Shown: one piece after another, positions 1 to 27,776 of the stretch
How the letters are laid out: every line of letters begins with the position of its first letter
How positions within the stretch are numbered: the first letter of the stretch is position 1
Assembly (NCBI GenBank): GCA_002796205.1
Contig: PCWO01000050.1
Location: 3,090-36,037 of the forward strand
Source: Candidatus Liptonbacteria bacterium CG11_big_fil_rev_8_21_14_0_20_35_14
GTDB lineage: Bacteria > Patescibacteriota > Minisyncoccia > UBA6257 > XYB1-36-10
DNA: 32,948 nucleotides
Direction of reading: 5' to 3'
The notes under the pieces: model-generated
Told to the model about the DNA's origin: nothing
The model's database searches: none
The model's input: the letters and a program-made list of their open reading frames with translations, nothing else
Made by a program: the position numbers and the translations under genes

Positions 1-244
1 TGGCTTGATTTTCCACTTCGTTTTTGACTTCGTGAAAGATGCCGGAAAACAACTGGCTGGCTGGAACACTGAATATGACTTCATAGGCAAAGACGGTTTC
101 GAGATTGGGAATCCGTTTGGCGCTTTCATAGTGCGATACCTTTGAACCGCAAAGTGAGCCAAGCAGTATAGCCACTTCTTTTTGCGAAAGACCCGAACGT
201 TTACGGAAAGTGCGCAGGTAATTTGAAAGTTGTTTGGCGGACAC
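1..244 (-). CDS. XRE-family helix-turn-helix transcriptional regulator, partial (C-terminus lies beyond window start)
   Basis: Absent from the ORF track because it runs off the window. The minus-strand frame from GTG (244-242) stays open for 81 codons to position 1: VSAKQLSNYLRTFRKRSGLSQKEVAILLGSLCGSKVSHYESAKRIPNLETVFAYEVIFSVPASQLF... This matches the HTH_3/XRE pattern (GLSQ.E.A, VS.YE, R.P). The start codon is uncertain and there is no clear SD. Confidence 0.55.
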   Translation of the reverse strand, partial: MSAKQLSNYLRTFRKRSGLSQKEVAILLGSLCGSKVSHYESAKRIPNLETVFAYEVIFSVPASQLFSGIFHEVKNEVENQA

Positions 245-482
245 AATATTTAAAATCAATTGAATTATATGATCTCATTGTAGTGTGAACGTACCTGTAA
301 AATAGGACGTGAAATATGTTATTGACGGCAAATAAAAAATACGGGAATACCGTACCGTTTCTTTATTTCATTGACAATTCGTTGCTTTTTCATCATATCA
401 TACAACCGGATTTATCCGTTGTGGATTTAGGGGATTTGGAAAACATATACCCATTTTCAATTTCAAATCTTTAACATTTCAG

Positions 483-518
483 GAAAAAGCGTTCATTTAA
501 CCTATCAAGAAAATGAAC
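483..518 (-). terminator. Possible intrinsic terminator downstream of the P-loop NTPase gene
   Basis: Perfect 8-bp inverted repeat gttcattt (491-498) / aaatgaac (511-518) with a 12-nt loop. On the minus strand it is followed by GCTTTTTCC. The stem is AT-rich, so this is weak. Confidence 0.35.
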
Positions 519-556
519 AACATCCCCATCATCCCCAAAGTCCACTGTATAATTTA

Positions 557-1924
557 TTAACTGGAGGATTGTTTATTTTCTGATTGCGTATCCAATCCAT
601 ACTTTTCCAGCAAGATACGAAGTTTTGGTTCCTCTGACGGTGGAATAATGTAGTTGCCGTTACTTTTAGCCGTCTTGAGGTTCAGTTTGGAGCGGATAAC
701 AAAGCCAATCCACTTGGTGGTGATTTTGCGTTGATACTCATCGCCATAGCGGTCGGTAAACCAGTCGGTGATATCTTTGACGGTGAGTTTGGTGTTTGGG
801 TTTTGCAGTATGTCTTTGATGATATCGAGTACCTGCCCCTCTACGGCGGTTCCCCTGTTCATAACGAGTTCTTTGTTGAATTGACGGGCTAGTAAACGGA
901 TTTCGTCTCTCATGGTTTCATCTTGAATCACGCTCAAGAGCGGGATAAAGATTTGATTAAGACGCGGTTCAATTTCCCAATCAATCATATCAGTATGTAT
1001 ATATACTTTATGGAAGTTACGGATACGAAAGAGCAGAAGTTTGTTACGCAACCTTTGGGCTTCTTCTTGATGTTCTTTTGAAAGATTGATCGGGATGTCC
1101 CGGCGTAGTTTGTTCTGTCCGGTGTTGTGAGTCAAAAAACGGCTTTCGAGTGCCGGGTCTTGGAAGGGACCGCATGTGGCAACCAGTTTTGGACCAAAGA
1201 CGACAAAGGCTCTTGGATTGAACTCACGGGTGTAGTTGGTTTCACTCCTTAATACCGGAAACCCTCTGGCGTTGCCGTTATTTAAGATTTTAACAAACTC
1301 GGTTTTTTCATCAGAGAAACGGAAATCGCTTTCATCTATGATGAGTGTGCCGCGAAAATCATTCAGCAGACGAAACAATGGTGAAATGGTTGAGGCTCCA
1401 TTGGCAAAAATCGGTTTGTAACATAAAGAGCCGATGGTTAATAAAAATCTTGTTTTTCCGGTTCCGTAATCGCCCTGAACGCGAAGGTATGGTAACTCAC
1501 TGAAACGGTCGTATACCCAACTTAACAAGATATAGTAACTGGATACCTTCTCGAACAGTTCAGGGATATCCATGTATTTATGAATATACGATTGTATGTC
1601 GGCGATAAGTTCCGTTTCAGAGGAATACTCCTCCACATCCGAAGGCAAGAGTACGATTTTGTTCTGTATGAGATTGTTTTCCGGCTTGTAGGGGGCGATG
1701 TTCAAGGTGTCGGATTTGTAAAAATCGGCATAATGCCATTTACCATCCCTCGCCACACAATACATGGTTTTGTGATTGTCCGGCTGATAGAGCATCTCAA
1801 TCAGTGTGCCGTTCTTGAGCAAAGCGGATGCTGTTGACTTGGCATAATTTTTTTTCTTGTCTTCTATGGTTTTTGAAAGTTTTGTGAGCATTAGGATGAG
1901 TAAATCACAATGGGCGGTAATCAA
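557..1924 (-). CDS. P-loop NTPase of unknown function, mobile-element associated
   Basis: 455-aa ORF with Walker A GDYGTGKT and Walker B TLIIDESD. I cannot assign a family from sequence alone. The track start is a TTG; the first ATG (MLTKLSK...) at 1891 is the more likely start. Confidence 0.7.
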   Translation of the reverse strand: MITAHCDLLILMLTKLSKTIEDKKKNYAKSTASALLKNGTLIEMLYQPDNHKTMYCVARDGKWHYADFYKSDTLNIAPYKPENNLIQNKIVLLPSDVEEYSSETELIADIQSYIHKYMDIPELFEKVSSYYILLSWVYDRFSELPYLRVQGDYGTGKTRFLLTIGSLCYKPIFANGASTISPLFRLLNDFRGTLIIDESDFRFSDEKTEFVKILNNGNARGFPVLRSETNYTREFNPRAFVVFGPKLVATCGPFQDPALESRFLTHNTGQNKLRRDIPINLSKEHQEEAQRLRNKLLLFRIRNFHKVYIHTDMIDWEIEPRLNQIFIPLLSVIQDETMRDEIRLLARQFNKELVMNRGTAVEGQVLDIIKDILQNPNTKLTVKDITDWFTDRYGDEYQRKITTKWIGFVIRSKLNLKTAKSNGNYIIPPSEEPKLRILLEKYGLDTQSENKQSSS

Positions 1925-1998
1925 TAGAATGAAACATCTGTGTTCTTTAACAAACTTGTACTTCTACTGAATGTTTTGATTCTCAATAAAGTTGAGAT

Positions 1999-2169
1999 AT
2001 GGAAAAAACCTTTTTTGAAGAACAGGATGGAAAAACACTTAAAGAGTTATTCCCTCATTTGAACGATGATGAAATACACCGTTTTGAGGAAAGTTTAGAA
2101 AAATATGTGGGGTTGGTATTACGAATTTTTGAGCGTACTTATCAACAAGATTCAGATTTGACAGAGTAA
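1999..2169 (+). CDS. Small hypothetical ORF (56 aa) directly upstream of the serine recombinase
   Basis: ATG 1999-2001 to TAA 2167-2169: MEKTFFEEQDGKTLKELFPHLNDDEIHRFEESLEKYVGLVLRIFERTYQQDSDLTE. It is below the ORF-track size cutoff, on the same strand as the recombinase and 20 nt upstream of it. No homology recognised. Confidence 0.3.
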   Translation: MEKTFFEEQDGKTLKELFPHLNDDEIHRFEESLEKYVGLVLRIFERTYQQDSDLTE

Positions 2170-2189
2170 TGGATACAGCTCTATCCTAG

Positions 2190-3653
2190 ATGATTATCAT
2201 TAAACAAAATGATCGTATGCCTTCCTACTTTGGTTATATACGTGTCTCAACCGTGAAACAGGGTGAGCACGGCGTATCGCTACAAGAACAAAAAGATGCC
2301 ATCGCACGATATGCCCTTGCAAAAGGATTTGAGATTATCCGCTGGTTTGAAGAACGCAAAACTGCCGCCAAAAGCGGTCGGCCTGAATTTGATTTGATGC
2401 TCAAGGAACTCAACAAAAGCACGGCAAAAGGGGTCATCATACACAAGATAGACCGAAGCGCACGAAACTTAAAAGATTGGAGTAACCTCGGAGAACTGAT
2501 AGATTCCGGCGTAGACGTGCATTTCGCTAATGAAAGCCTTGATCTTCATTCACGGGGTGGAAGGCTATCCGCCGACATTCAGGCGGTAGTAGCGGCGGAT
2601 TATATCCGCAATCTCAAAGAAGAAACCAAAAAAGGCTTTTACGGGCTAATCAAACAAGGGTTGTATCCCCTGCCCGCGCCATTAGGGTATGTTGACTGTG
2701 GTAAAGGCAAACCGAAAGAACTTGACCCGGAGAGAGCCCCATTGGTCAAAAAAGCATTTCTTCTATACGCATCCGGTCAATTCAGTTTGGATACCCTAAC
2801 GGCTGAGATGTACCAAAAAGGTTTACGGAACCGGAACGGTAGACCTGTCTCAAGAAGCGGATTGGCAAAAATGTTTAAGAACCCATTTTATATCGGCTTA
2901 ATTCGCATACACACATCCAATGAGTTGTTTTCAGGTATTCATCCGCCGCTGATTAGCAAAACTCTGTTAGACCGGGTCAACGATGTATTACAGGGCAAGC
3001 AAGTTAAAAAAATTGTTCAGCATGAATTTGTGTTTCGTAAGTTATTTTCATGCCGGCAATGCAATCGTCTTATGACAGGAGAAAAACAAAAAGGGTTTGT
3101 TTATTACCGCTGTCATACGCACGGCTGCAAAACATCCATTCGGGAAGACAATATAAACCAAGTTGTACAGGATAAATTGAGACGGATTATTTTCAATCAT
3201 GAATTGCGGCACGTATTGTACAAAGCCCTACAAAAGTTTAGAGAGACTTGGTTTGAGGAAAGAAACAACAATATAGCGCAAATGGAACTTCAATTGAGTC
3301 ATGTTTTAACACGCCTTAACCGCTTAACGGATGCCTATCTGGATGGAACGATTGACACAACTTTATACAAAGAAAAGAAAGAATCGTTGCTCATAGAACG
3401 AAAGGCTACGGAAGAAAAGTTAGCCCTTATCAAGTCAGAAAACATGAATATACCGGACAGGATACAAAAATACTTCGAACTGGCAGAAAGCCTTTATTTA
3501 TCATATAAAAGTGCAAATTTGGACGAAAAACAGGAATTATTGAAAATGGTGAGTTCGAACTGCGGGGTAGAGGGAAAAAACGTAGTATTTATGCTGAATT
3601 TTCCGTATTCTGAGCTCGAAAAAATGGCTAGCGTCTCCAGCGGTGGACCGTAG
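2190..3653 (+). CDS. Large serine recombinase (integrase-type)
   Basis: N-terminal resolvase domain (YFGYIRVSTVKQ with catalytic Ser, HKIDRSARN). Recombinase domain follows, then a zinc ribbon (CRQCNRLMTG...YYRCHTHGC) and a C-terminal coiled-coil region. The real start may be the ATG at 2217 (MPSYFGYIRVS). The last 10 nt, including the TAG stop, overlap tRNA-Ala. Confidence 0.92.
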   Translation: MIIIKQNDRMPSYFGYIRVSTVKQGEHGVSLQEQKDAIARYALAKGFEIIRWFEERKTAAKSGRPEFDLMLKELNKSTAKGVIIHKIDRSARNLKDWSNLGELIDSGVDVHFANESLDLHSRGGRLSADIQAVVAADYIRNLKEETKKGFYGLIKQGLYPLPAPLGYVDCGKGKPKELDPERAPLVKKAFLLYASGQFSLDTLTAEMYQKGLRNRNGRPVSRSGLAKMFKNPFYIGLIRIHTSNELFSGIHPPLISKTLLDRVNDVLQGKQVKKIVQHEFVFRKLFSCRQCNRLMTGEKQKGFVYYRCHTHGCKTSIREDNINQVVQDKLRRIIFNHELRHVLYKALQKFRETWFEERNNNIAQMELQLSHVLTRLNRLTDAYLDGTIDTTLYKEKKESLLIERKATEEKLALIKSENMNIPDRIQKYFELAESLYLSYKSANLDEKQELLKMVSSNCGVEGKNVVFMLNFPYSELEKMASVSSGGP

Positions 3654-3716
3654 GAGATTCGAACTCCTGACCTCCTGCTTGCAAAGCAGGCGCTCTACCA
3701 ACTAAGCTAACGGCCC
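3644..3716 (-). tRNA. tRNA-Ala(TGC): tRNA-Ala (anticodon TGC)
   Basis: Minus strand reads GGGCCGTTAGCTTAGTTGGTAGAGCGCCTGCTTTGCAAGCAGGAGGTCAGGAGTTCGAATCTCCTACGGTCCA. It folds as a cloverleaf with anticodon loop TTTGCAA and the G3:U70 alanine identity pair. CCA is not encoded. Confidence 0.93.
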
Positions 3717-3760
3717 AATAAGTAATATATAAACATATAAAAGCCTTTTGGGCAATATTA

Positions 3761-3790
3761 ATAAAAAACCTCCCGCTTATTAAGGGAGGA
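3761..3790 (-). terminator. Intrinsic terminator (minus strand) between the tRNA-Val/Ile unit and tRNA-Ala
   Basis: Stem CCTCCC (3769-3774) / GGGAGG (3784-3789) with a 9-nt loop, followed on the minus strand by TTTTTTATT. Confidence 0.55.
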
Positions 3791-3851
3791 ATTTGGTTTG
3801 TAATTGACCTTTTGATTTGTACTAATAATACAAAGATGAAAAATAAATATT

Positions 3852-3890
3852 ACAAAAAAGGGTTGGGCGTATTTGCACCCAACCCTTTAC
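3852..3890 (-). terminator. Intrinsic terminator (minus strand)
   Basis: 11-bp stem AAAGGGTTGGG (3857-3867) / CCCAACCCTTT (3878-3888), followed on the minus strand by TTTTTTGT. Confidence 0.6.
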
Positions 3891-4075
3891 AGGAGTCAAT
3901 TCATACTAATAAATAATCCTTTAAAATTATTGGATTAAACCCTGGATATCACTAGGTCTAAGGAATATCTACAAAACCTTAGAATTTATCCGATATCCAT
4001 ACAATCCGGAAAGGAGACGGAGTTGCCCTTTGTTTAGGCTTAGTATGAGTTGAACATTATTTAAAAGTGCTAATG

Positions 4076-4149
4076 TGCGCACGTCTGGATTTGAACCAGA
4101 GACCTCTTGCGTGTCATGCAAGCGCTCTAACCATCTGAGCTACGCGCGC
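4076..4149 (-). tRNA. tRNA-Val(GAC): tRNA-Val (anticodon GAC)
   Basis: Minus strand reads GCGCGCGTAGCTCAGATGGTTAGAGCGCTTGCATGACACGCAAGAGGTCTCTGGTTCAAATCCAGACGTGCGCA. The cloverleaf is intact and the anticodon loop is ATGACAC. Confidence 0.92.
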
Positions 4150-4164
4150 TGTTATTGTTTTGTG

Positions 4165-4238
4165 TGGGCGTGCCTGGACTCGAACCAGGGACCTCAGTCT
4201 TATCAGGACTGCGCTCTAACCACCTGAGCTACACGCCC
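4165..4238 (-). tRNA. tRNA-Ile(GAT): tRNA-Ile (anticodon GAT)
   Basis: Minus strand reads GGGCGTGTAGCTCAGGTGGTTAGAGCGCAGTCCTGATAAGACTGAGGTCCCTGGTTCGAGTCCAGGCACGCCCA. The anticodon loop is CTGATAA. Confidence 0.92.
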
Positions 4239-4239
4239 C

Positions 4240-4491
4240 TTATTCTAAATCCTCTCTTAAGGTATTTTTAGCTCCTTCAATATTGAACTCTAAATTGTTT
4301 TGATTTTTCTGAATATCTATATTAAAAGCTTTATTGAATCCGGTGACTAAGAAGCTAATATTACTGACAACATACCAGATAATAATAATTAATATTAAAA
4401 ACCCAAAAATGAAAAAAGTCAATTCTTGGCTTTTTTTAAAAAGTTTTTGAAATAAATCTTTTATATTTATATTGGAGTTTAATTTAGCCAT
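4240..4491 (-). CDS. Small single-pass membrane protein, hypothetical
   Basis: I place the start at the ATG at 4491 (MAKLNSNINIKDLF...), 1 nt after the stop of the upstream gene. The longer track ORF start (4539) would overlap that gene. One hydrophobic helix: FFIFGFLILIIIIWYVV. Confidence 0.5.
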   Translation of the reverse strand: MAKLNSNINIKDLFQKLFKKSQELTFFIFGFLILIIIIWYVVSNISFLVTGFNKAFNIDIQKNQNNLEFNIEGAKNTLREDLE

Positions 4492-4492
4492 A

Positions 4493-5059
4493 TTATTTTC
4501 TAAATATAACACTACCTCTAGCGAATAATCTAAATTCATTACTGTCCTTTAATTTGGAAACGTCAAAATTTTCATAGGTTATAAGAAAACGACTTTCCTC
4601 AACTAATTGCATAAAATTTAATATATTGGAGAAATTACCATCAACAGTTAAAGTCATATTGGCACTGCCAAAAAAATTTGACTCATCTTTTGATTCGCCG
4701 GTAAAGGCGGGGACGACGTTAACACTGGCTGTTTTACCAATAACACCAATGTCTCTGGTAAAGCTAATTAAGTCGTCTTTGCTGGCTAATTTCTTTTTTA
4801 AGAGAGGTTCAAAAATTTTAGCCTCGTTTTGTTGTTTGAGAAGATTATCTTTTTTTTCAAATATTTGGGCCTCAATTTGAACTTTCTGATTTTCATTACC
4901 AAGAATGTTAATTTTATCTTCAATTTTATTTTTTAATATGCCAATTACTATAAGTTGCGCTACAATAATTAAGATAGCGATAATACTACCGATACTAAAA
5001 ATTTGCTTCCAATTTTTTTTAAATTTTGCAAACATATTATTACTTATTAATAATATCAC
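4493..5059 (-). CDS. PilO-like membrane protein (type IV pilus assembly-like); function tentative
   Basis: N-terminal TM helix (IFSIGSIIAILIIVAQLIVIGIL), a coiled-coil stretch, then a C-terminal domain. That domain has the PilO-like pattern ...MTLTVDGNFSNILNFMQLVEESRFLITYENFDV. An alternative start is M9 at 5035. No pilM or pilN is adjacent. Confidence 0.4.
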   Translation of the reverse strand: MILLISNNMFAKFKKNWKQIFSIGSIIAILIIVAQLIVIGILKNKIEDKINILGNENQKVQIEAQIFEKKDNLLKQQNEAKIFEPLLKKKLASKDDLISFTRDIGVIGKTASVNVVPAFTGESKDESNFFGSANMTLTVDGNFSNILNFMQLVEESRFLITYENFDVSKLKDSNEFRLFARGSVIFRK

Positions 5060-5071
5060 GATAAAGACAAC

Positions 5072-5887
5072 ATGTTTAGAGAAGAACAGATATATTACAA
5101 CGCCATAAACATAGCTTTAAATAGTAATTTTAGAAAAATAAAAGAATATTTAGAAATTTATGGTTCTTTTAAAAAAAGTTTTGAGATTTTAAAAACTGCT
5201 TTAAATCCTTTTGAATTAATAAAAGATGTAGAGAAATTAAATGTTAGACTTATATTGTATAGTGATGAGGAATTTCCAAAAAGATTAAAAAATATACCAG
5301 ATAGCCCAATAGGGCTTTATGTTTTAGGAGAGGTACCTAGCGAAAGATGTGTGGCAATAGTAGGGACAAGAAAACCAAGTAAGTATGGAGAAAAAATAGC
5401 TTATGATATAGCTAAAGATTTAGCCAAAATAGGTTTTGGAATTGTGAGTGGATTAGCTTATGGGATTGATACTAAATCCCACTTTGGGGCAATTAAATCA
5501 AAAGGTAAAACTTGGGCAATATTAGCTAACGGCCTGGCGCACATATACCCAAAAGAGAATCGTTTTTTGGCTCAAAATATATTAGAAAATAAAGGAGGAA
5601 TAATGAGCGAGTATCCGATTTTAGATAGGCCTATCCCATATAGATTTTTAGAGAGAAACAGAATTATTAGCGGATTATCAGAGGATGTTATTATAATAGA
5701 AGCGCCACAAAGGAGTGGCTCTATATCAACAGCCAGGCACACACTGGAACAAGGAGGTAATGTGTATGTAGTGCCGGGAGAAGTTTATAATATTAATTTT
5801 AAAGGAAGTCATGAGTTAATAAGAGATGGAGCCAGACTGATAACATCATCTCAAGATCTTTTAGATGACATGGGGGTTAATATTTGA
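5072..5887 (+). CDS. dprA: DNA-processing protein DprA (Smf)
   Basis: Rossmann-like DprA core: IVGTRKPSKYG, VSGLAYGIDTKSH, ERNRIISGLS, EAPQRSGSISTA. TGA stop. Confidence 0.92.
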   Translation: MFREEQIYYNAINIALNSNFRKIKEYLEIYGSFKKSFEILKTALNPFELIKDVEKLNVRLILYSDEEFPKRLKNIPDSPIGLYVLGEVPSERCVAIVGTRKPSKYGEKIAYDIAKDLAKIGFGIVSGLAYGIDTKSHFGAIKSKGKTWAILANGLAHIYPKENRFLAQNILENKGGIMSEYPILDRPIPYRFLERNRIISGLSEDVIIIEAPQRSGSISTARHTLEQGGNVYVVPGEVYNINFKGSHELIRDGARLITSSQDLLDDMGVNI

Positions 5888-5924
5888 CATAATGCTTATT
5901 ATACGTAAACTCAAGAAATTATAG

Positions 5925-7997
5925 ATGACTAAAACATTAGATAATAAAACTCTGGTAATAGTTGAGTCGCCCACAAAAGCAAATACCATTGCGCGTTTTT
6001 TGGGTTCCGATTATATAATAGATTCTTCGTTTGGACATATAAGAGACTTGCCTAAATCAAAATTAGGGATTGACTGCGAAAAAAATTTTGAGCCACAATA
6101 TGTCATACCGACAAAATCTCGCAAGCAGGTTAATGCTTTAAAGAAGGAAGTAATGAAAGTAAAAGAAATAATACTAGCCACTGATGAAGACCGCGAGGGA
6201 GAGGCAATTGCCTATCATTTGGTTGAGGCGCTTGACTTGAAAGATAAATTAGCCCAAGGCGATGTTAAAAGAATTGTTTTCCACGAGATTACAGAAAGCG
6301 CCATTAGAGAGGCTTTAAGCCACCCCAGATCAATAAATATGGCTATGGTTGATGCTCAACAAGCTCGCCGAGTTTTAGATAGATTAGTTGGATATAAACT
6401 ATCTCCCTTTTTATGGAAAAAAGTTATGCGCGGACTTTCGGCTGGTAGAGTGCAATCGGTAGCGGTCAGATTAATAGTGCAAAGAGAAAGCGAGATAAAA
6501 GATTTTAAACCGGTTGAGTATTATACCATAGAGGTCGAGCTTGAGGCTTATGATAAAGAGTTAAAAAAACATATTATTACTTTTGCTTTAGCTAAAATAG
6601 GCGGTAAAGCTATAGAAAAACCCGGCATGACCGATAAAGATAAAGTAGAAAATATAATATTAGATTTACCAAAATCGGTTTGGAAAATTGAGAATATTAT
6701 TAAAAAAGACACCAAGCGTAATCCCCTCCCTCCTTTTATTACCAGCACTCTACAACAAACAGCGGTAAATAGACTAGGATATTCCTCAAAAAAAACTATG
6801 ATGCTCACCCAAAGATTATATGAAAAAGGATATATAACTTATATGCGTACCGACTCGGTAAATTTATCTAAAGAAGCCACTTTGGTAGCGAGTGAATTTA
6901 TTACAGAAAACTACGGCAAAGAATATGCGCTTTTAAAACCGCGCAAGTTTTCACAAAAAAGTAAGTTAGCCCAGGAGGCTCATGAGGCTATTAGACCAAC
7001 CAATCCAAAAGTCTTGTCTGCCAGTTTAAATATTGAACCAGCCGAGAAAAAAGTATATGAGATGATTTGGCAGAGATTTATGGCTTCACAAATGCAATCA
7101 GCTTCAATTACCTCTACCACTATAGAGGCTTTGGCTAAGGGAAAAGATAAATATACTTTTAGAGTGAGTGGCTCTATGATCGCTTTTGATGGATTTTTGC
7201 GTGTTTGGCCAACAAAGATGCAGGAGATAACACTACCCAATATAGATGAGAAAAAGGAAGTACTTTATAAAAAATCTTCTAGTAATCAACATTTTACAGA
7301 GCCACCAGCTAGATATAATGAGGCTAGTTTAATTAAGGCTCTAGAGGAACATGGGATTGGTAGACCTTCAACTTATGCTTCTATTATTTCTGTAATTCAG
7401 GATAGAAATTATGTGATTAAAAATGAGGTAAAAAGATTTGAGCCAACCGAGATTGGTGAGATTGTTAATAATTTATTAGTGGAACACTTTCCTAAAATCG
7501 TGGATATTGGTTTTACCTCTGATGTGGAGGAATCACTAGACGAAGTGGCGCTCGGAGTTTCTAATTGGAGAGAGGTTATAAAAGAATTTTATGAACCGTT
7601 TAATAAAAATTTAGAAAAAAAATATGAGGAGATACAAAAAAGCGAGATAGTACCCGAGGAAAAAACCGATAAAAAATGTCCGGAGTGTTCTAAGGATATG
7701 ATTATTAAAAGAGGTAGATTTGGAAAATTTTTAGCTTGTAGCGGATTTCCAGATTGTAAACATACCGAAAAAATTGAGGGAGAAAGCGGAGGCGCAAATA
7801 CCTCTCTATTCAAATCGGTGTCAACTGGTATAAGGTGCCCGGAGTGTGGTCAGGGAGAGCTTGTCTCTAGAAGAGTAGGCAAAGGAAGAGCACGAGGTAA
7901 AATATTTTGGGGATGTAATAGATATCCAGATTGCAAACATGCGGTTTGGGAAAATCCATTAGCAGAAAAGAAAGAGAAAAAAGAAAAAGACGCCTAA
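5925..7997 (+). CDS. topA: DNA topoisomerase I
   Basis: Toprim N-terminus (LVIVESPTKANTIARFLG, ATDEDREGEAIA), the YITYMRTDS active-site tyrosine region, and two C-terminal Cys4 zinc ribbons. The dprA-topA order is a common synteny. Confidence 0.96.
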   Translation: MTKTLDNKTLVIVESPTKANTIARFLGSDYIIDSSFGHIRDLPKSKLGIDCEKNFEPQYVIPTKSRKQVNALKKEVMKVKEIILATDEDREGEAIAYHLVEALDLKDKLAQGDVKRIVFHEITESAIREALSHPRSINMAMVDAQQARRVLDRLVGYKLSPFLWKKVMRGLSAGRVQSVAVRLIVQRESEIKDFKPVEYYTIEVELEAYDKELKKHIITFALAKIGGKAIEKPGMTDKDKVENIILDLPKSVWKIENIIKKDTKRNPLPPFITSTLQQTAVNRLGYSSKKTMMLTQRLYEKGYITYMRTDSVNLSKEATLVASEFITENYGKEYALLKPRKFSQKSKLAQEAHEAIRPTNPKVLSASLNIEPAEKKVYEMIWQRFMASQMQSASITSTTIEALAKGKDKYTFRVSGSMIAFDGFLRVWPTKMQEITLPNIDEKKEVLYKKSSSNQHFTEPPARYNEASLIKALEEHGIGRPSTYASIISVIQDRNYVIKNEVKRFEPTEIGEIVNNLLVEHFPKIVDIGFTSDVEESLDEVALGVSNWREVIKEFYEPFNKNLEKKYEEIQKSEIVPEEKTDKKCPECSKDMIIKRGRFGKFLACSGFPDCKHTEKIEGESGGANTSLFKSVSTGIRCPECGQGELVSRRVGKGRARGKIFWGCNRYPDCKHAVWENPLAEKKEKKEKDA

Positions 7998-8013
7998 GCC
8001 TTAAACTAGACTT

Positions 8014-9456
8014 ATGATGTTAAAAAAAGTAATACAAAATAATCCTCAAGGAATAGTTTTTAGAGCGCTAGAATTTACAAAAAAGACTCACGTGGGACAG
8101 ACTAGAAAAACTGGGGAACCTTATTATATACACCTGGAAGCGGTGGCCGAAACACTACTAGAATGGAATATGGATGAGGCCTGCATAGTAGCAGGTTTAC
8201 TACACGATGTTTTAGAGGACACAGAAACGACTTACGAGATGCTTAAAAAAGAATTTTCAATTGAGGTAGCTGACTTAGTTAATCAGGTAACAAAATTTGG
8301 CATTGTTAAATATAGAGGAGTTGAGGCGCAAGCCGAATTACTGCGCAAAATGATGTTATCTTTAGCCAAAGATGTGCGCGTGGTTTTGATAAAGTTTGCC
8401 GATAGATTACATAATATGAAAACATTAGGGGCTCTACCTCCTCAAAAACAAAAAAGAATTGCGCTGGAAACGGCTGAAATATATGCCCCACTGGCCTATC
8501 GACTCGGAATGCATAGATTATCGGGAACTTTTGAGGATTTAGCTTTTCCTTTTATACAACCGAAAGAATATAAGAAACTTTTAAAAGCAGTGGGTCAAAA
8601 ATATGGCGAGAGAGAGGCATATCTTGAGAGAGTAAAACCTGTGCTATATGAGGCGTTGGCAAAAAATAATATTGAGGCAGTTGACATAACTTTCAGAGCT
8701 AAAAGACTTTTTAGTTTGTATAAAAAATTATATAAGTATGATATGGATTTAGATCGTATTTATGATTTAGTGGCTTTTAGAATTGTTGTAAAAAATATTG
8801 AGGATTGTTACGCCGTGCTGGGAATTGTTCATAGTTTATGGAAACCATTACCGGGCAGAATAAAGGATTATATAGCGATGGCCAAACCAAATGGATATCA
8901 AAGTTTACACACCACTGTTTTTTGCTTGGATAATAAAATAACCGAATTTCAAATAAGAACAGACAATATGCATACCCAGGCCGAAAATGGCATCGCGGCT
9001 CATTGGCTTTATAAGACACAGCCAAACAGAAGACAGGATATAAATGAATTAATAAAAGAATCGGAGTGGGTGTCTAGAGTCAAAGAGTTTAATGAAAACG
9101 AAAAAGCCGAAAATTTTATTGAGATATTAAAGACGGACTCATTTTTAAATAGAATTTATGTGGTCACCCCGCAAGGAGAGGTGCGGGATTTACCATATGG
9201 CTCAACGCCAATTGATTTTGCCTACAGAATACATAGCGATTTAGGCAATGAGGCAGTGCGGGCGCGAGTCAATGGAAAAATAGTGCCTTTAAATTATTGT
9301 TTAGAATCGGGAGATATAGTTGAGATAATGCGCCAAAAAGGAAAATTACCGAGCGAGGATTGGCTTCTATTTATTAAAACACACTCAGCCAAAGACCATA
9401 TTCGTCAGACACTAAATAAAAAAGGTAAGCGGTTAAAAAATAGAGTTAGAGGTTAG
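8014..9456 (+). CDS. rel: RelA/SpoT-homolog (p)ppGpp synthetase/hydrolase, short form (HD + synthetase + TGS only)
   Basis: HD hydrolase motif (HLEAV...GLLHDVLEDT), synthetase domain (YDLVAFRIVV, GYQSLHTTV, EFQIRT) and TGS domain (VVTPQGEVRDLPYGSTPIDFAYRIH). At 480 aa it lacks the C-terminal regulatory domains of long RSHs. Confidence 0.9.
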   Translation: MMLKKVIQNNPQGIVFRALEFTKKTHVGQTRKTGEPYYIHLEAVAETLLEWNMDEACIVAGLLHDVLEDTETTYEMLKKEFSIEVADLVNQVTKFGIVKYRGVEAQAELLRKMMLSLAKDVRVVLIKFADRLHNMKTLGALPPQKQKRIALETAEIYAPLAYRLGMHRLSGTFEDLAFPFIQPKEYKKLLKAVGQKYGEREAYLERVKPVLYEALAKNNIEAVDITFRAKRLFSLYKKLYKYDMDLDRIYDLVAFRIVVKNIEDCYAVLGIVHSLWKPLPGRIKDYIAMAKPNGYQSLHTTVFCLDNKITEFQIRTDNMHTQAENGIAAHWLYKTQPNRRQDINELIKESEWVSRVKEFNENEKAENFIEILKTDSFLNRIYVVTPQGEVRDLPYGSTPIDFAYRIHSDLGNEAVRARVNGKIVPLNYCLESGDIVEIMRQKGKLPSEDWLLFIKTHSAKDHIRQTLNKKGKRLKNRVRG

Positions 9457-10667
9457 ATATCGCCCTCGGGGATGACGCGATCAATGATGCCTTTAAGCTC
9501 GTCGGCGGAGTTGAAAGAAATAGTAATTCTACCGGTGTCGCCATTTTTTTCTACTTTAACTTTGGTGCCTAATAATTCGGATAATTTTTCGGCTAGATGT
9601 CTTAACTCTGGGTCATCGTTTTTAAAACGCTTAATAGCATTTTCGCGGGCGTTGGTGTTGGCTACTTTGTTGCGTAATTCCTTGACGGTTAAACCTTTGG
9701 TTATAAGTTCTTGAAAAAGATTTTGTTGAGTGTTTAAGTCGGGAACGGTTAATAATAACCGACCTTGGCTTTCGCTTATCTTGCCTTGAGAAATAGCTTC
9801 TTGAATATAGGTGGGAAGAGATAATAATCGCATAGTGTTAGCGACGACTTCCCTACTCTTGCCCATACGAGTAGCTATTTCTCTTTGAGTCATCCCATAA
9901 TCGTCTTGAAGTTGAGCAAAAGAACGAGCGGCTTCAATCGGGTTAAGATCTTCTCTTTGAATATTTTCAATAATAGCGAGCTCAAGTTTTTCTTTTTTAG
10001 GTTGGGCTTGTTTGATAATAGACGGGACTCTTTCTAGGCCGGCCAATTTAGCGGCTCGCAGTCTTCTTTCGCCAGCGATAAGTTCATATTCAACATCAGT
10101 GCCGTATGAAGTTTCTATAATTTTTTTAGAAACAATTAAAGGTTGAATAATACCGAATTCGGCAATAGAGGCTGATAATTCTTTTAAGGCTTCTGCGTCA
10201 AAATATCTACGAGGTTGATATGGGTTGGGTTTTATTTTTTCAACTTCTAATAAGAAAATATGGTCGCTAGGCTCACCTTTAGAAAAATTTTTTGAGATAG
10301 TTGGTTGTTCTTTTTTAGGAGTAAAGTCGGCTTTAACAAAATTAACCTGATAAGAAGGATTTTGATTGTCTATTGGCATATCGTTTACCGGATAAACAGG
10401 AACTTGAGGAGCTGGTTCCGGTATCTGTTCTTCCTGATACTCCTCCTCTTCTTCTTCGGGATAAACTTCGGTGTTTGGGGCTATGGGGGTGGGAATTTTT
10501 TTAGGAAAGCTAGGAATTTGGTTTTGAAAACTCTTAGGCGGCTCGGGATTAATATTAGGAAAATTAAAAACAGGCTCGCCTGCTTGGTTTATGTTTTCTT
10601 CATTAAGGTTTTCGTTAACCTGATGATTTTTATTGGGTATAAGTGAATTTAAGCCGTCTCCTAACAT
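9453..10667 (-). CDS. parB: Chromosome partitioning protein ParB/Spo0J with a long low-complexity N-terminal extension
   Basis: ParB box IAGERRLRAAKLAGLERVPSII and the HTH region. It sits directly downstream of parA. Confidence 0.92.
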   Translation of the reverse strand: MLGDGLNSLIPNKNHQVNENLNEENINQAGEPVFNFPNINPEPPKSFQNQIPSFPKKIPTPIAPNTEVYPEEEEEEYQEEQIPEPAPQVPVYPVNDMPIDNQNPSYQVNFVKADFTPKKEQPTISKNFSKGEPSDHIFLLEVEKIKPNPYQPRRYFDAEALKELSASIAEFGIIQPLIVSKKIIETSYGTDVEYELIAGERRLRAAKLAGLERVPSIIKQAQPKKEKLELAIIENIQREDLNPIEAARSFAQLQDDYGMTQREIATRMGKSREVVANTMRLLSLPTYIQEAISQGKISESQGRLLLTVPDLNTQQNLFQELITKGLTVKELRNKVANTNARENAIKRFKNDDPELRHLAEKLSELLGTKVKVEKNGDTGRITISFNSADELKGIIDRVIPEGDI

Positions 10668-23271: not shown

Positions 23272-23392
23272 ATGATATCCCGGCAAATCCTACTTTCCCC
23301 ACATTTAGAGTATCATCGGAATTATATGATTTCACTACCGAGTTCGGAATGGAATCGGGTGGGACACACATAATTAAATCACCGAGAAATCA
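23272..23392 (-). rRNA. rrf: 5S ribosomal RNA
   Basis: Minus strand contains GTCCCACCCGATTCCATTCCGAACTCGGTAGTGAAA ... GGGGAAAGTAGGATTTGCCGGGA, matching the universal 5S core. The terminal helix is extended by a 14-bp stem, GTTTTGAGCAATGAT (23403-23389) / ATCATTGCTCAAAAC (23276-23262). Mature ends are therefore uncertain by about 10 nt. Confidence 0.88.
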
Positions 23393-24358: not shown

Positions 24359-25062
24359 CATGTATTCCCATTATTACTAATGGCATTGGACTATAAATTC
24401 ATCCTTAATCTATTAAGGAGGCTAACGTTTAGTCTCTACGGGTGTCATTATACGTTTTTTTCTATTTTTAGAATAATTTAAATCTTTATAGATATAAATT
24501 AAATCTAAAAGTTTTTGAAAATCATTTTCATTTTTAACAGATTTTTTAGCTTTTATAATTTTAAGCATTAAATCTGCTTGTTTTTTCTTAAGAATTAAAA
24601 ATGGAGAAATATTTTTAATAAAAGATTCAATGTCATCTATACGATTTATTGAATATTCTAATATTCCATCTTTTCTTAATCTTAATTTTCCAAAACCAAT
24701 TAAGTTGCATATTTTCTTAAAAGCTTCTTTATCTTTTTGAGCTTGAAAAAGAACTATATATAAAGCTATTTAAAAATCATATTTATATGATTTATTAGGT
24801 TTAGCTCTAGCATATATACTACCGTCTCCATCAAGGAAACCGGCTATGTATGATTTCTTAATTGGTGTAAGTGATTTTAACATATAAGACTTCCCTCGGT
24901 ATTATCCTAACATATGACAGGTTATTTTAAAATAACTTATCACTAGGACTTCACCGATATAAGTTAGCTTTACACATAGAAATTACTTTCTATGGCCGCC
25001 GTGTATGATGTCATTTGCCTCGGGCTCAGACTGTTTAAAAGCCGATAAATATCCGCTTCTAA
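24359..25062 (-). mobile_element. Group I intron at the L2593-type (I-CreI-type) site of 23S rRNA
   Basis: Exon sequence GGGTTCAGACCGT | CGTGAGACAGGTTGG is contiguous after removing 704 nt. The upstream exon ends in U and the intron ends in G. P1 is possible (exon CCGU with intron GCGG). R element GTAGAGACTAAACG lies at 24426-24439 and S element AATTTATAGTCC at about 24388-24399. Confidence 0.82.
24422..24883 (-). pseudogene. I-CreI-like single-motif LAGLIDADG homing endonuclease with one in-frame TAA (codon 38)
   Basis: Manual translation: [152 protein letters not shown]. The internal stop is at 24770-24772. The ORF is absent from the track because the stop splits it. Confidence 0.78.
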
Positions 25063-25283
25063 ACGGTCTGAACCCAGCTCGCGTACCTTTTTAATTGGCG
25101 AACAGCCAAACGCTTGGGACCTTCTCCAGCCCCGCGCTAAGATGAGCCGACATCGAGGTGCCGAACCTTGCCGTCGCTATGGACGCTCGGGCAAGACTAG
25201 CCTGTTATCCCCAGGGTAGCTTTTATCCGTTGTCTCCGACCTTCCTGTAAAGGTTCGTCGGGTCATTAAGTTCCGCTTTCGCG

Positions 25284-25314
<31 letters not shown>

Positions 25315-27187
25315 CAGCTTTTGCCTTTATACGACCAACTCGATTTCCATCCGAGTCTAGCTGACCTTTAAACTCCTCCGTTACTTTTTAGGAGGATTCC
25401 GCCCCAGAAAAACTGCCCACCAGGCACTGTCTCCATAAGGTTTACCAAATAGATTCCTTATAGGTTAGACCTTGCCCCAATAAAGAGTGGTATTTCATAT
25501 TGCGACTCCATCCCGACCGAAATCGGAACTTCAAAGTCTCCCACCTATGCTACGCATTAAAAGAACAAGACCAATACCAAGCTACAGTAAAGCTCCTGGG
25601 GTCTTTTCGTCCCACTGCAGGTAACCCGCGTCTTCACGGGTATCGTATTTTCACCAAGCTTCTCGCTGAGACAGTTCTCCAGTCGTTACACCTTTCGTGC
25701 GCTCCGGAACTTACCCGGAAAGGAAATGCGCTACCTTAGAACGGTTATAGTTACCGCTGACATTGACGAGGGCTTCGGTCAGTCAGCATCTACCCGAAAG
25801 CAGATACCGCCAACGTTAACCTTCTCGCATCGGTCAGGTGTCACCCCCTATACATCCACTTACGTGTTAGCAGGGAGCTGTGTTTTTGATAAACAGTCGC
25901 CAGAGATTCTTTAGCTGCGGCCACCCGAAGGTGGCAGGCCTTATTGCGAACTTACGGCCGCTATTTTGCCGAGTTCCTTAGCGAGATTTCACTTGTTCCC
26001 CTTGGGCTACTCGCCCTACCCACCGGTGTTGGTTTGCGGTACGAACACCTATGCCTTAACTCTAGAGGCTTTTCTTGGAAGGCTCTGCGATTGAATCACT
26101 TGAGGGGCTTTAGCCCTCAAATTTTCGCCGGATTTTGGAGGTTGCTATTAAAAGCAGATAAGTCGATTTACGGCTTACCCATCCTACAATCAAGCGACGC
26201 CAAACCATTAAGGCGATCAATCTCTTTTCCTCCGTCCCCTCATTGAAAAACATAGGTGGGGCTGGAATATTAACCAGCAATCCATCGCGTGCGGCTTTCG
26301 CCATACACTAAGGGTCGCCTAACCCGTGGCTGATTGCCAGTGCCACGGAAACCTCGGGTTTTCGGGGTGCGGATTTCTCATCCGCATTGTGGTTACTCAT
26401 GCCAACATTCTCACTTCTATACGCTCCAGCAATTTTCACAAATCACCTTCAGTGCATATAGAACGCTCTCCTACCACTTATATTTTAAAAAAATATAAAT
26501 CCGCAACTTCGGTACTACGCTTAGCCCCGTTACATTCTCGGCGCATCTTGCCATTGAATAGTGAGTTGTTACACACTCTTTAAAGGATGGCTACCTCTAA
26601 GCCCACCTCCTATCTGTCTATGGCACTATACTACCTTGCATGCACTTAGCGTAAATTTTGGGACCTTAGTTTGCGATTAGGGCTGTTTCCCTTTTGACCA
26701 CGGAGCTTAGCCCCCGCAGTCTAACTCCTGAGTTATATTGTATGGTATTCGGAGTTTGATTGGTCTGGCGAAGTTTCCTCCTACTCAGACCATCCAGTGC
26801 TCTACCCCCACACATAAACACTCAAGGCTAGTCCAAAAACTATTTCGGAGAGAACCAGCTATTACCAGATTCGATTAGCTTTTCACTCCTTACCACAGGT
26901 CATCCGAAGGCGTTAAACGACCTAACGGTGCGGGCCTCCCCCTACCTTTCGGTAGGGTTCACCCTGCCCATGGCAAGCTCATCTGGCTTCGGGTCTTATC
27001 CATATCCTAAACGCGCTATTAACACTCGCTTTCGCTACGCCTTCCTTCCGTAGAAGTTAAACAAAGGATATACATAAACTCGTTGGCTCATTCTTCAATA
27101 GGCACGGCGTCATCCACGATAAATCGGGACTCCGCCTCCTTGTAAGCATACGGTTTCAGGTTCTATTTCATCGGCCTCACCGGCCTG

Positions 27188-27224
<37 letters not shown>

Positions 27225-27776
27225 ATCACTAAAGATATTTAGCCTTACGAGACAGTACTCGCAGATTCCCTCAAGGTTTTCTGCCCTCGAGGTACTCAAG
27301 AATATATACAAAAAAGTGAGCACGTTTTCGTCTACAGGACTTTCACCTTTTTTAGTTCGGCTTTCCAGCACGACTCGACTAACGTGTCCATTTATAACTT
27401 TTCTCTTTCCTCAACCTAAATCATTAAACTAGGGTGATCTAGGTTGAAAAAAGAATGTATATACCTTACAACCCCAAAAATTAGTAAACTAATATTTTGG
27501 TTTGGGCTCTTCCCTTTTAACTCGCCGCTACTCAGGGAATCACTATTTGTGTTTTCTTTTCCTCCGCTTACTGAGATGTTTCACTTCAGCGGGTTTGCAT
27601 ACATAAAATGTATAATACAGGTTTACTGTACTGGGTTTCCCCATTCGGAAATCTCCGGATCGTAGGTTGCTACACACCTCCCCGAAGCGTATCGTCGTTA
27701 CGCCACGTCCTTCATCGCTCTTTTAGTGTCTAGGCATCCACCGTATGCCCTTATGCAATCGTCTCAACATTGAGAA

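Follow-up and report, generated by a model that had tools for sequence, protein, structure and literature searches.

A large serine recombinase gene that ends inside tRNA-Ala: a probable integrative element with its attachment site in its own integrase gene

A 32,948-nucleotide stretch of DNA from Candidatus Liptonbacteria bacterium CG11_big_fil_rev_8_21_14_0_20_35_14 (contig PCWO01000050.1; hereafter the window, equivalent to C30:3090-36037 of the source genome, G000) was analysed with respect to a gene for a large serine recombinase (LSR), the 3' end of which overlaps that of a convergent tRNA-Ala(TGC) gene. We consider it probable that window positions 1–3653, together with C30:2473-3089, constitute the backbone of a small and probably self-replicating integrative element, which its own LSR placed at the very 3' end of the tRNA gene and which carries its attachment site (attP) within the LSR gene. 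The G000 assembly comprises 0.62 Mb in 51 scaffolds with gaps and is 92% complete; family relatives are referred to as G002, G003 and G004, and the loci of relatives by L-numbers. The features of the window, and the relatives' loci that are interrupted in the same manner, are compiled in Table 1.

The LSR reading frame enters the tRNA-Ala gene

In silico analysis of the LSR identified Resolvase (PF00239, 8.9e-28, residues 14-157), Recombinase (PF07508, 2e-12) and Zn_ribbon_recom (PF13408, 2.3e-6) domains, and its match in PHROGs was phrog_95, annotated as integrase (2e-79). By this domain architecture the enzyme is a large serine recombinase. The best sequence match in the PDB was the catalytic domain of the TP901-1 integrase; identity to characterised enzymes is low, and the NCBIfam matches to XisF and CcrA/B/C were well below the curated cut-offs. 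An alignment of 29 clade sequences revealed Y16, R18, V19, S20, T21, C288, C291, C308, C313 and P487 as invariant, thereby including the catalytic serine (S20) and the four cysteines of the Zn-ribbon (C288, C291, C308 and C313), while residues ~335-440 appeared helical and heptad-rich by eye. Judged from its homologues, translation probably starts at M10 (position 2217).

A first-pass annotation of the window had reported that this frame reads 10 nt into tRNA-Ala (3644-3653), and the Rfam boundary and the stop of the open reading frame (ORF) bear this out; the overlap becomes 12 nt if the boundary of ARAGORN is used, which takes in the CC after the discriminator base. The tRNA carries G3:U70 and the family-typical acceptor stem GGGCCGT/ACGGTCC. 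To place this overlap in context, LSR homologues were searched in 101 genomes (G000 included) and were found in 47 of these, mostly at ~30% identity and frequently with several copies in one genome. In 16 of the 19 best loci, a tRNA gene converges on the LSR 3' end. When LSR frames were extended to their stop codons, every one of the 18 loci with a downstream tRNA (from other genomes of the order and from contigs C7, C17 and C30 of G000) was seen to read into that tRNA in antisense, for 12-343 nt and into genes for tRNA-Gln, -Leu, -Ser, -Arg, -Asn, -Glu or -Ala. As this applies to 18 of 18 tRNA-flanked loci, the overlap between LSR and tRNA is not a matter of chance.

Within G000 itself, the LSR at C7:136-1698 reads into tRNA-Ser(GCT) and that at C17:17143-18657 into tRNA-Arg(TCG), while an LSR fragment at C35:5827-7094 lies beside tRNA-Arg(GCG) with a frame that ends 388 nt short of the tRNA. 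The genome thus holds three LSR-tRNA islands in 0.62 Mb and an LSR fragment at a fourth tRNA, and such elements therefore represent a major route of gene flow in reduced genomes of the candidate phyla radiation (CPR). The window's LSR stands apart from the typical ~30%-identical CPR recombinases of the order.

The attachment site within the LSR gene

The LSR of the window ends exactly after an invariant GGP motif, the last residue being P487. Approximately 74 of the 85 clade loci are un-split at this point and continue for 25-45 further codons after NGGP (GxPYRDIPRTWDxLLxxL…), and six relatives are broken at the very same codon by a convergent tRNA gene (tRNA-Ala and tRNA-Glu twice each, tRNA-Leu and tRNA-Arg once each). 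The truncation at GGP and the six breaks at the same codon therefore place attP inside the LSR gene. The first-pass annotation had argued that the att junction must lie at the recombinase C-terminus and that excision would alter the last codons of the gene, a proposal with which the ~85 clade relatives and the six breaks agree.

At the DNA level, the consensus of the un-split genes reads CAAAyGGTGGCCCG^TATCGGGACATACCTCGAACTT (^ denoting the end of the GGP codon), and the window reads AGCGGTGGACCG^TAGGAGATTCGAACTCC at the same position. The motif TCGAAC is 97-98% conserved in the un-split genes, wobble positions included, and conservation at wobble positions indicates a constraint on the DNA. 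The putative recombination core, GGTGGACCGTA, corresponds both to the acceptor 3' strand of tRNA-Ala plus CC (the chromosomal site, attB) and to sequence of the un-split LSR gene (attP). This 11-mer is identical in the LSR gene of L061, and the empty tRNA-Ala site of G002 shares 13 nt (GTGGACCGTACCG) with the attP of L061. The core forms a dyad, ACGGT-GG-ACCGT (ACGGT-GG-(A/C)CCGT overall), around a non-palindromic GG that corresponds to tRNA positions 71-72. Counted from the centre of the dyad, which was placed on the basis of this pattern, a CGA occurs at position 20 in the P' arm of 56 of 59 un-split loci and in the P arm of 18 of 59, while the CGA of the T-loop is found at position 14-16 in the B' arms provided by tRNAs.

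Two further sets of loci bear on the position of the core. In the close pairs L062/L089 (89% nt identity) and L082/L087 (84% nt identity), similarity is lost 21 and 41 nt past the GGP codon, respectively. Additionally, seven un-split loci (L061, L087, L089, L123, L126, L130 and L145) possess a second copy of the LSR tail, 1.3-4.4 kb downstream and on the same strand; where the junctions of these copies were read (L061, L087, L089, L126 and L145), similarity begins exactly at GTGG/CCCG, with an unrelated left arm and a frame that encodes the full tail. The loss of similarity just outside the P' half-site and the start of the tail copies at the core thus provide independent support for its position.

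In the mechanism that we propose, the attP of the LSR would be situated in the last part of its coding sequence, and the crossover would take place in or beside GGTGG within the core, that is, at the final base pairs of the tRNA acceptor stem. The tRNA-Ala gene would remain essentially host-encoded and intact after insertion, and the LSR would be stripped of its last 25-45 codons and acquire a new TAG stop from the antisense strand of the tRNA. The acceptor/T-stem of the tRNA and its T-loop TCGAAC (in antisense) may act as the B' half-site; in the P' arm of attP, TCGAAC would lie 6 nt further from the centre, which is roughly the register shift between the attP and attB of serine recombinases. 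Work on the LI/A118 integrase reportedly describes a shift between attP and attB half-sites of about the size seen here. The displaced LSR tail would once have been located at the far end of the element, and the missing far junction is predicted to read x-GTGGACCG-TAYCG…, encoding YR.IPRT….

An alternative is that the island was placed by a tyrosine integrase, or that the overlap is coincidental, in which case the LSR would be cargo or a resolvase. Sites in tRNA genes are classically used by tyrosine integrases (PMC4383910), and the island upstream of the L060 element does encode a tyrosine recombinase. However, the 6.7 kb of C30 left of the tRNA encode no tyrosine integrase and a serine recombinase only, the LSR stops at the GGP where tRNAs interrupt the six relatives, and the un-split relatives hold a tRNA-like, wobble-conserved site at this same GGP. 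Together with the overlap at each of the 18 order-level loci, these observations make a tyrosine integrase or a coincidence very improbable as an explanation.

Table 1. Features of the window (window coordinates unless another contig is named) and relatives' loci in which the LSR gene is interrupted by a tRNA gene.
Feature	Position	Strand	Details
XRE-type helix-turn-helix (HTH) regulator, ~128 aa	2..259 (full ORF C30:2962-3348)	-	HTH_31 2.6e-8; HTH_3 1.6e-6
P-loop NTPase, ~444-455 aa	557..1924	-	Walker A GDYGTGKT; Walker B LIIDESD; likely ATG start 1891
Small conserved ORF, 56 aa (81-91 aa in relatives; 56-91 aa overall)	1999..2169	+	directly upstream of LSR
LSR, 487 aa	2190..3653	+	TAG stop 3651-3653; Resolvase/Recombinase/Zn_ribbon_recom
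Putative recombination core GGTGGACCGTA	3639..3649	.	dyad CGGT-GG-ACCG; probable junction P-O-B'
tRNA-Ala(TGC)	3642-3716 (ARAGORN) or 3644-3716 (Rfam)	-	intact; Rfam 73.7 bits, full model
tRNA-Val(GAC) and tRNA-Ile(GAT)	4075..4238	-	host side of junction; syntenic in family relatives
L098, L109			broken at GGP codon by tRNA-Ala(TGC)
L099			broken at GGP codon by tRNA-Glu(CTC)
L113			broken at GGP codon by tRNA-Glu(TTC)
L133			broken at GGP codon by tRNA-Leu(GAG)
L060			broken at GGP codon by tRNA-Arg(GCG)

Composition and the host side of the junction

The stretch left of tRNA-Ala is compositionally foreign. Window positions 1-3641 have a GC content of 0.41 as compared to a genome mean of 0.343 (standard deviation 0.03; 3.6-kb windows), which corresponds to z = 2.2 and to the top 1.9% of the genome, while their tetranucleotide distance (z = 3.1) falls in the top 1.1% of genome windows. 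Besides this stretch, the genome is GC-rich at the 23S rRNA gene (window 25022-27768) and at the LSR-tRNA islands on C17 and C35. The composition profiles are consistent with the first-pass annotation, in which a foreign element at tRNA-Ala had been proposed.

On the other side of the junction, the sequence runs unbroken from the LSR through tRNA-Ala to tRNA-Val, tRNA-Ile, dprA and topA, host genes which are syntenic in G002, G003 and G004. The topoisomerase I encoded by topA shares 68% identity with that of a 'Candidatus Paceibacterota' genome, and further named matches belong to Patescibacteria, which identifies the host as a CPR bacterium, in keeping with the reference to CPR-like genomes in the first-pass annotation. 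An alignment established that the first 28 nt and the acceptor stem of tRNA-Ala are common to the tRNA-Ala genes of these three relatives. The search for empty sites that had been recommended along with the first-pass annotation was productive: the tRNA-Ala site is unoccupied in G002, where 20 nt separate the tRNA 3' end from a hydrolase gene, and also in G003, where no insert is present.

A junction of this kind might also arise as an assembly chimera, a foreign LSR element having been joined to the host contig via a shared tRNA-Ala k-mer. The composition does change at the tRNA, the closest relatives of the LSR are from other phyla, and the scaffold is gapped and carries a transposase of 53% GC at its end. 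On the other hand, the unbroken sequence extends from the LSR across the tRNA and on through Paceibacteria genes over 29 kb, and the tRNA is complete and well-scoring, with the first 28 nt and acceptor stem matching those of family relatives. Moreover, identity to a foreign attP or tRNA-Ala at the join amounts to only 11-13 nt, which is too short for an assembler k-mer, the same junction geometry recurs in independent assemblies (L060, L098, L109 and others), and the nearest backbone relative, L060, is itself on a 146-kb contig of 36% GC. A chimeric origin is accordingly given very little credence.

The element backbone and its cross-phylum family

The genes that the first-pass annotation had listed for the element, namely those of an XRE-like repressor, a P-loop NTPase and a serine recombinase, were recovered by their HTH_31 match, Walker motifs and LSR domains, respectively. 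The XRE ORF is cut by the edge of the window, and the full ORF crosses a scaffold gap of 43 N (C30:3047-3089) directly left of the window start, beyond which ~3 kb more of the scaffold follow. Its product is 53-63% identical to the XRE protein of L060, and the 15 X residues that represent the gap have 15 aligned counterparts in the latter; this alignment validates the scaffold gap, and the element therefore reaches at least C30:2473. Thus, while an element does lie to the left of the tRNA as had been annotated (1-3716), it is not confined to that interval but crosses the gap to at least C30:2473. Homologues of the XRE gene adjoin the LSR in 40 of the loci searched.

The P-loop NTPase had no sequence match in Pfam, NCBIfam, PHROGs or the PDB. 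The best Foldseek matches of its AlphaFold (AF2) model, which has a predicted local distance difference test (pLDDT) score of 71.6, were the helicase region of phage NrS-1 (E 6.8e-5), African swine fever virus PrimPol, the SaPI5 primase-helicase, MCM and large T antigen, at template modelling (TM) scores of ~0.3, and forkhead/winged-helix folds were matched on its C-terminus. From these fold matches we take the protein, with moderate confidence, to be most likely a replicative helicase of the SF3/D5-like type that bears a winged helix at its C-terminus. Its identity to the homologue in L060 is 84%, and that to others 52-57%.

The small ORF upstream of the LSR had no significant Pfam match. It can be aligned with the small ORFs of L059, L060 and L061, and in 34 loci a tblastn match to it immediately precedes the LSR; in L059 and L061 the called end of the small ORF overlaps the LSR start by 4 nt. 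It is a candidate accessory or directionality factor. A further backbone gene, an ORF of 165 aa, likewise had no significant Pfam match, for which reason the label 'RuvC-like', hinted at by its N-terminus, was not adopted.

For the window's LSR, over 100 homologues of 53-58% identity were identified, some of them in genomes labelled as Verrucomicrobia, Brocadiia, Acidobacteria or Deltaproteobacteria, on contigs of up to 2.9 Mb; relatives of 49-58% identity occur on contigs of 36-62% GC. A single-protein search of genome contigs with this LSR returned mostly distant archaeal resolvases. The backbones were compared across five contigs and 80 metagenome loci (GC 0.36-0.62) obtained by an alignment-based metagenome scan. 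The family backbone consists of the 165-aa ORF (-), the XRE gene (-), the gene of the ~450-aa P-loop protein (-), often a DnaG-type primase gene (-), the small ORF (+) and the LSR gene (+), and is kept in L058-L061 and in many of the 80 metagenome loci. In the nearest backbone relative, L060, the proteins are 84% (450-aa protein), 63% (XRE), 59% (165-aa ORF) and 57% (LSR) identical to those encoded by the window and its left flank, and the LSR reads 62 nt into tRNA-Arg(GCG), a layout as in the window.

The far junction and the state of this copy

Several observations weigh against the interpretation of this region as an element inserted by its own LSR. Across C30:1-6700 and all 51 contigs, repeat search, blastn-short and a pattern search permitting three mismatches detected neither a copy of the tRNA-Ala 3' end nor one of the core, and returned chance-level matches only. 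Searches of G000 for the displaced LSR tail, by tblastn with the tails of 11 relatives and by a hidden Markov model of 58 tails in six frames, were negative. To the left of the tRNA, the host gene order differs by rearrangement from that of G002, and synteny therefore gives no position for the far end. The 165-aa backbone gene in C30 has a frameshift and an in-frame TAA, and the assignment of the NTPase as a helicase rests on fold matches of low TM score. Finally, the LSR gene is un-split in most clade members, those on contigs of up to 2.9 Mb included; these members have an intact attP within a chromosome, which a simple integration model does not explain.

The second att-like repeat which the first-pass annotation had proposed to look for is consequently missing from a 92%-complete assembly. 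However, as an identity of only ~11 nt is to be expected, its absence does not refute an LSR event, although the far end is left undefined. The extended L060 locus, too, yielded no displaced tail. As regards the rearrangement, the genes of the G002 left flank (hydrolase, Mur-ligase-like, Ddl and RluD-like) are located on C25 in G000, where they run into other host genes. Left of the backbone on C30 there are AT-rich host-like ORFs, one of which has a paralogue on C44. A direct repeat of 134 nt, derived from the 3' end of the 165-aa gene and 91% identical, is present at C30:1744-1877 and 2501-2634, and a 182-nt copy of the 5' end of this gene, 93% identical, is present at C44:1599-1780; both copies, which lie beside paralogous AT-rich genes for secreted proteins, point to earlier related elements or to rearrangement. 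Furthermore, C30:1-1056 holds an ORF for a Mutator-family (IS256-like) transposase of 52-54% GC, which is cut by the scaffold end and the product of which shares only 34% identity with the Mutator transposase encoded after the LSR in L061.

These features raise the possibility of a fossil junction, in which the integration was genuine but the present copy is an immobile, decaying remnant that has lost its far junction and cargo through deletion or rearrangement and retains a truncated LSR. In favour of such decay, no attL, displaced tail or tRNA fragment was found anywhere in the assembly, the 165-aa gene is frameshifted and interrupted by a stop, with fragments at C30:1728-1937 and C44:1599-1780 among AT-rich host-like ORFs, and the primase of larger relatives is absent. 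Conversely, the reading frames of the LSR, the helicase, the XRE protein and the small ORF remain open and have kept their invariant residues; the assembly consists of 51 gapped scaffolds and this contig ends 5.3 kb left of the LSR within a transposase gene, such that the far end may not have been assembled; and the lesions of the 165-aa gene, which is next to the scaffold gap, are possibly assembly errors. We regard the fossil junction as a tentative explanation, somewhat short of an even prospect. This copy of the element is, at any rate, incompletely bounded and possibly decaying: it may be a rearranged, decaying remnant, or its far end may simply be unassembled.

Accessory cassettes at the LSR's own site

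The DNA bracketed by the tail copies in the seven un-split loci represents accessory cassettes, which encode a KAP NTPase, a protein kinase, a peptidoglycan-binding protein and proteins of unknown function, with a maximum of one cassette per locus. The arrangement suggests that accessory cassettes may be inserted at the LSR's own site, bringing with them a replacement tail. A cassette bounded by att copies is absent from the window, in which the LSR abuts tRNA-Ala directly.

By extension, the LSR family could serve as a cassette platform, in which the recombined-in DNA, be it a cassette with P' arm and tail or the chromosome by way of a tRNA 3' end, would supply a new C-terminal tail to the enzyme. 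The state of the element would then be reflected, and possibly governed, by whether the enzyme has a full tail, a swapped tail or a truncation imposed by a tRNA, thereby combining a directionality switch that depends on integration with an integron-like capture of defence and accessory genes across many phyla. This broader proposal is speculative, and we consider it rather unlikely to hold as a whole.

Comparison with known systems

Large serine integrases work on short att sites with a non-palindromic centre and inverted half-sites, attP being longer than attB. The phage and integrative conjugative element integrases of this type (phiC31, Bxb1, A118/LI, TP901-1, SPbeta SprA, CcrAB and XisF) have the same Resolvase/Recombinase/Zn-ribbon architecture as the window's LSR, and the pattern around the putative core may reflect a similar att logic. 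In contrast, these known integrases have protein-coding or intergenic targets and an attP outside the ORF, whereas the target here would be a tRNA 3' end and attP would lie inside the ORF.

The target of phage Mx8 is the 3' end of a tRNA gene. The genes for Mx8 IntP and for SSV-type integrases contain attP, such that integration alters or removes the C-terminus of the enzyme, as would be the case here. Mx8 IntP and the SSV1 integrase are, however, tyrosine recombinases with another fold, chemistry and att organisation, and the likeness is thus one of working and not of family. That the integrase ORF extends across attP in Mx8 and SSV has been noted in the Islander paper (PMC4383910, citing Tojo et al. 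1996).

The islands described in that work have an integrase gene that abuts an intact tRNA gene, a tRNA 3' end that faces the foreign island and an empty site in relatives, all of which were encountered here. They differ in possessing a tyrosine integrase and a displaced tRNA fragment, while the window has a serine recombinase and no such fragment was found in the assembly; the shared identity spans only ~11 nt because the crossover apparently occurs at the last acceptor-stem pairs. According to the same paper, no integrases other than those of the tyrosine type are known to use tRNA genes as targets (PMC4383910), in line with the remark in the first-pass annotation that a serine-integrase element at a tRNA is unusual. 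Our literature search found no description of serine integrases at tRNA genes, in Patescibacteria or with attP inside the integrase ORF. The data support the view of a serine-integrase element that targets tRNA 3' ends via an att site inside its own gene, neither feature having been described for serine integrases in the literature found.

With integrons and staphylococcal cassette chromosome (SCC) platforms, the family shares the location of a cassette between an internal att site and a second copy of att plus tail, as is evident in the seven relatives (1.3-4.4 kb). Integrons differ in that IntI belongs to another class of enzyme, and the relatives examined here hold at most one cassette per locus, the window none.

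Serine integrases are the main tools for the insertion of large DNA and, as described so far, avoid genes for tRNAs. The clade described here makes use of a universally conserved tRNA 3' end, the T-loop of which is apparently read as a half-site motif, in hosts of 36-62% GC that range from CPR bacteria to Verrucomicrobia- and Acidobacteria-labelled genomes; if true, this would provide integrases with predictable and ubiquitous landing sites. Additionally, the split-gene layout could tie directionality or expression to the integrated state, an arrangement previously documented only for tyrosine integrases (Mx8 and SSV).

Neighbouring genes and further observations

The region upstream of the L060 element (L162, positions 1-9300) encodes a protein with a TIR domain, the XerC/D-like tyrosine recombinase mentioned above and a small resolvase, and its gene content resembles that of a composite mobile or defence island. 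At L162:1678-1693, an inverted match of 16 nt to the T-arm of tRNA-Arg is of marginal significance (E 0.08). In L120 and L122 (~9390-9833), the LSR frame reads ~400 nt through motifs that resemble the antisense of a T-loop (GNRT, GRIRT, DSNL, ESNR, RNRT and GIRT). ARAGORN called no tRNA in either locus, and this run of motifs may represent an array of tRNA 3' fragments or of att remnants.

The tRNA-Ala 3' end of G004 (L035, G004:C71, 1884-4362) is occupied by an unrelated 2.7-kb insert with genes for a HicB-like antitoxin and an HD-domain protein and without a recombinase. This insert was considered as a remnant of the window's element family and rejected as such, being devoid of an LSR or of any similarity to the backbone. 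On the strength of this insert, the tRNA-Ala 3' end may be an insertion hotspot that receives DNA of several kinds.

The 5S (23278-23386) and 23S rRNA genes of the window are ~1.6 kb apart, and the window contains no 16S rRNA gene. The tRNAs that are usually found in the rRNA spacer, tRNA-Ile(GAT) and tRNA-Ala(TGC), are situated ~19 kb away, adjoining the element.

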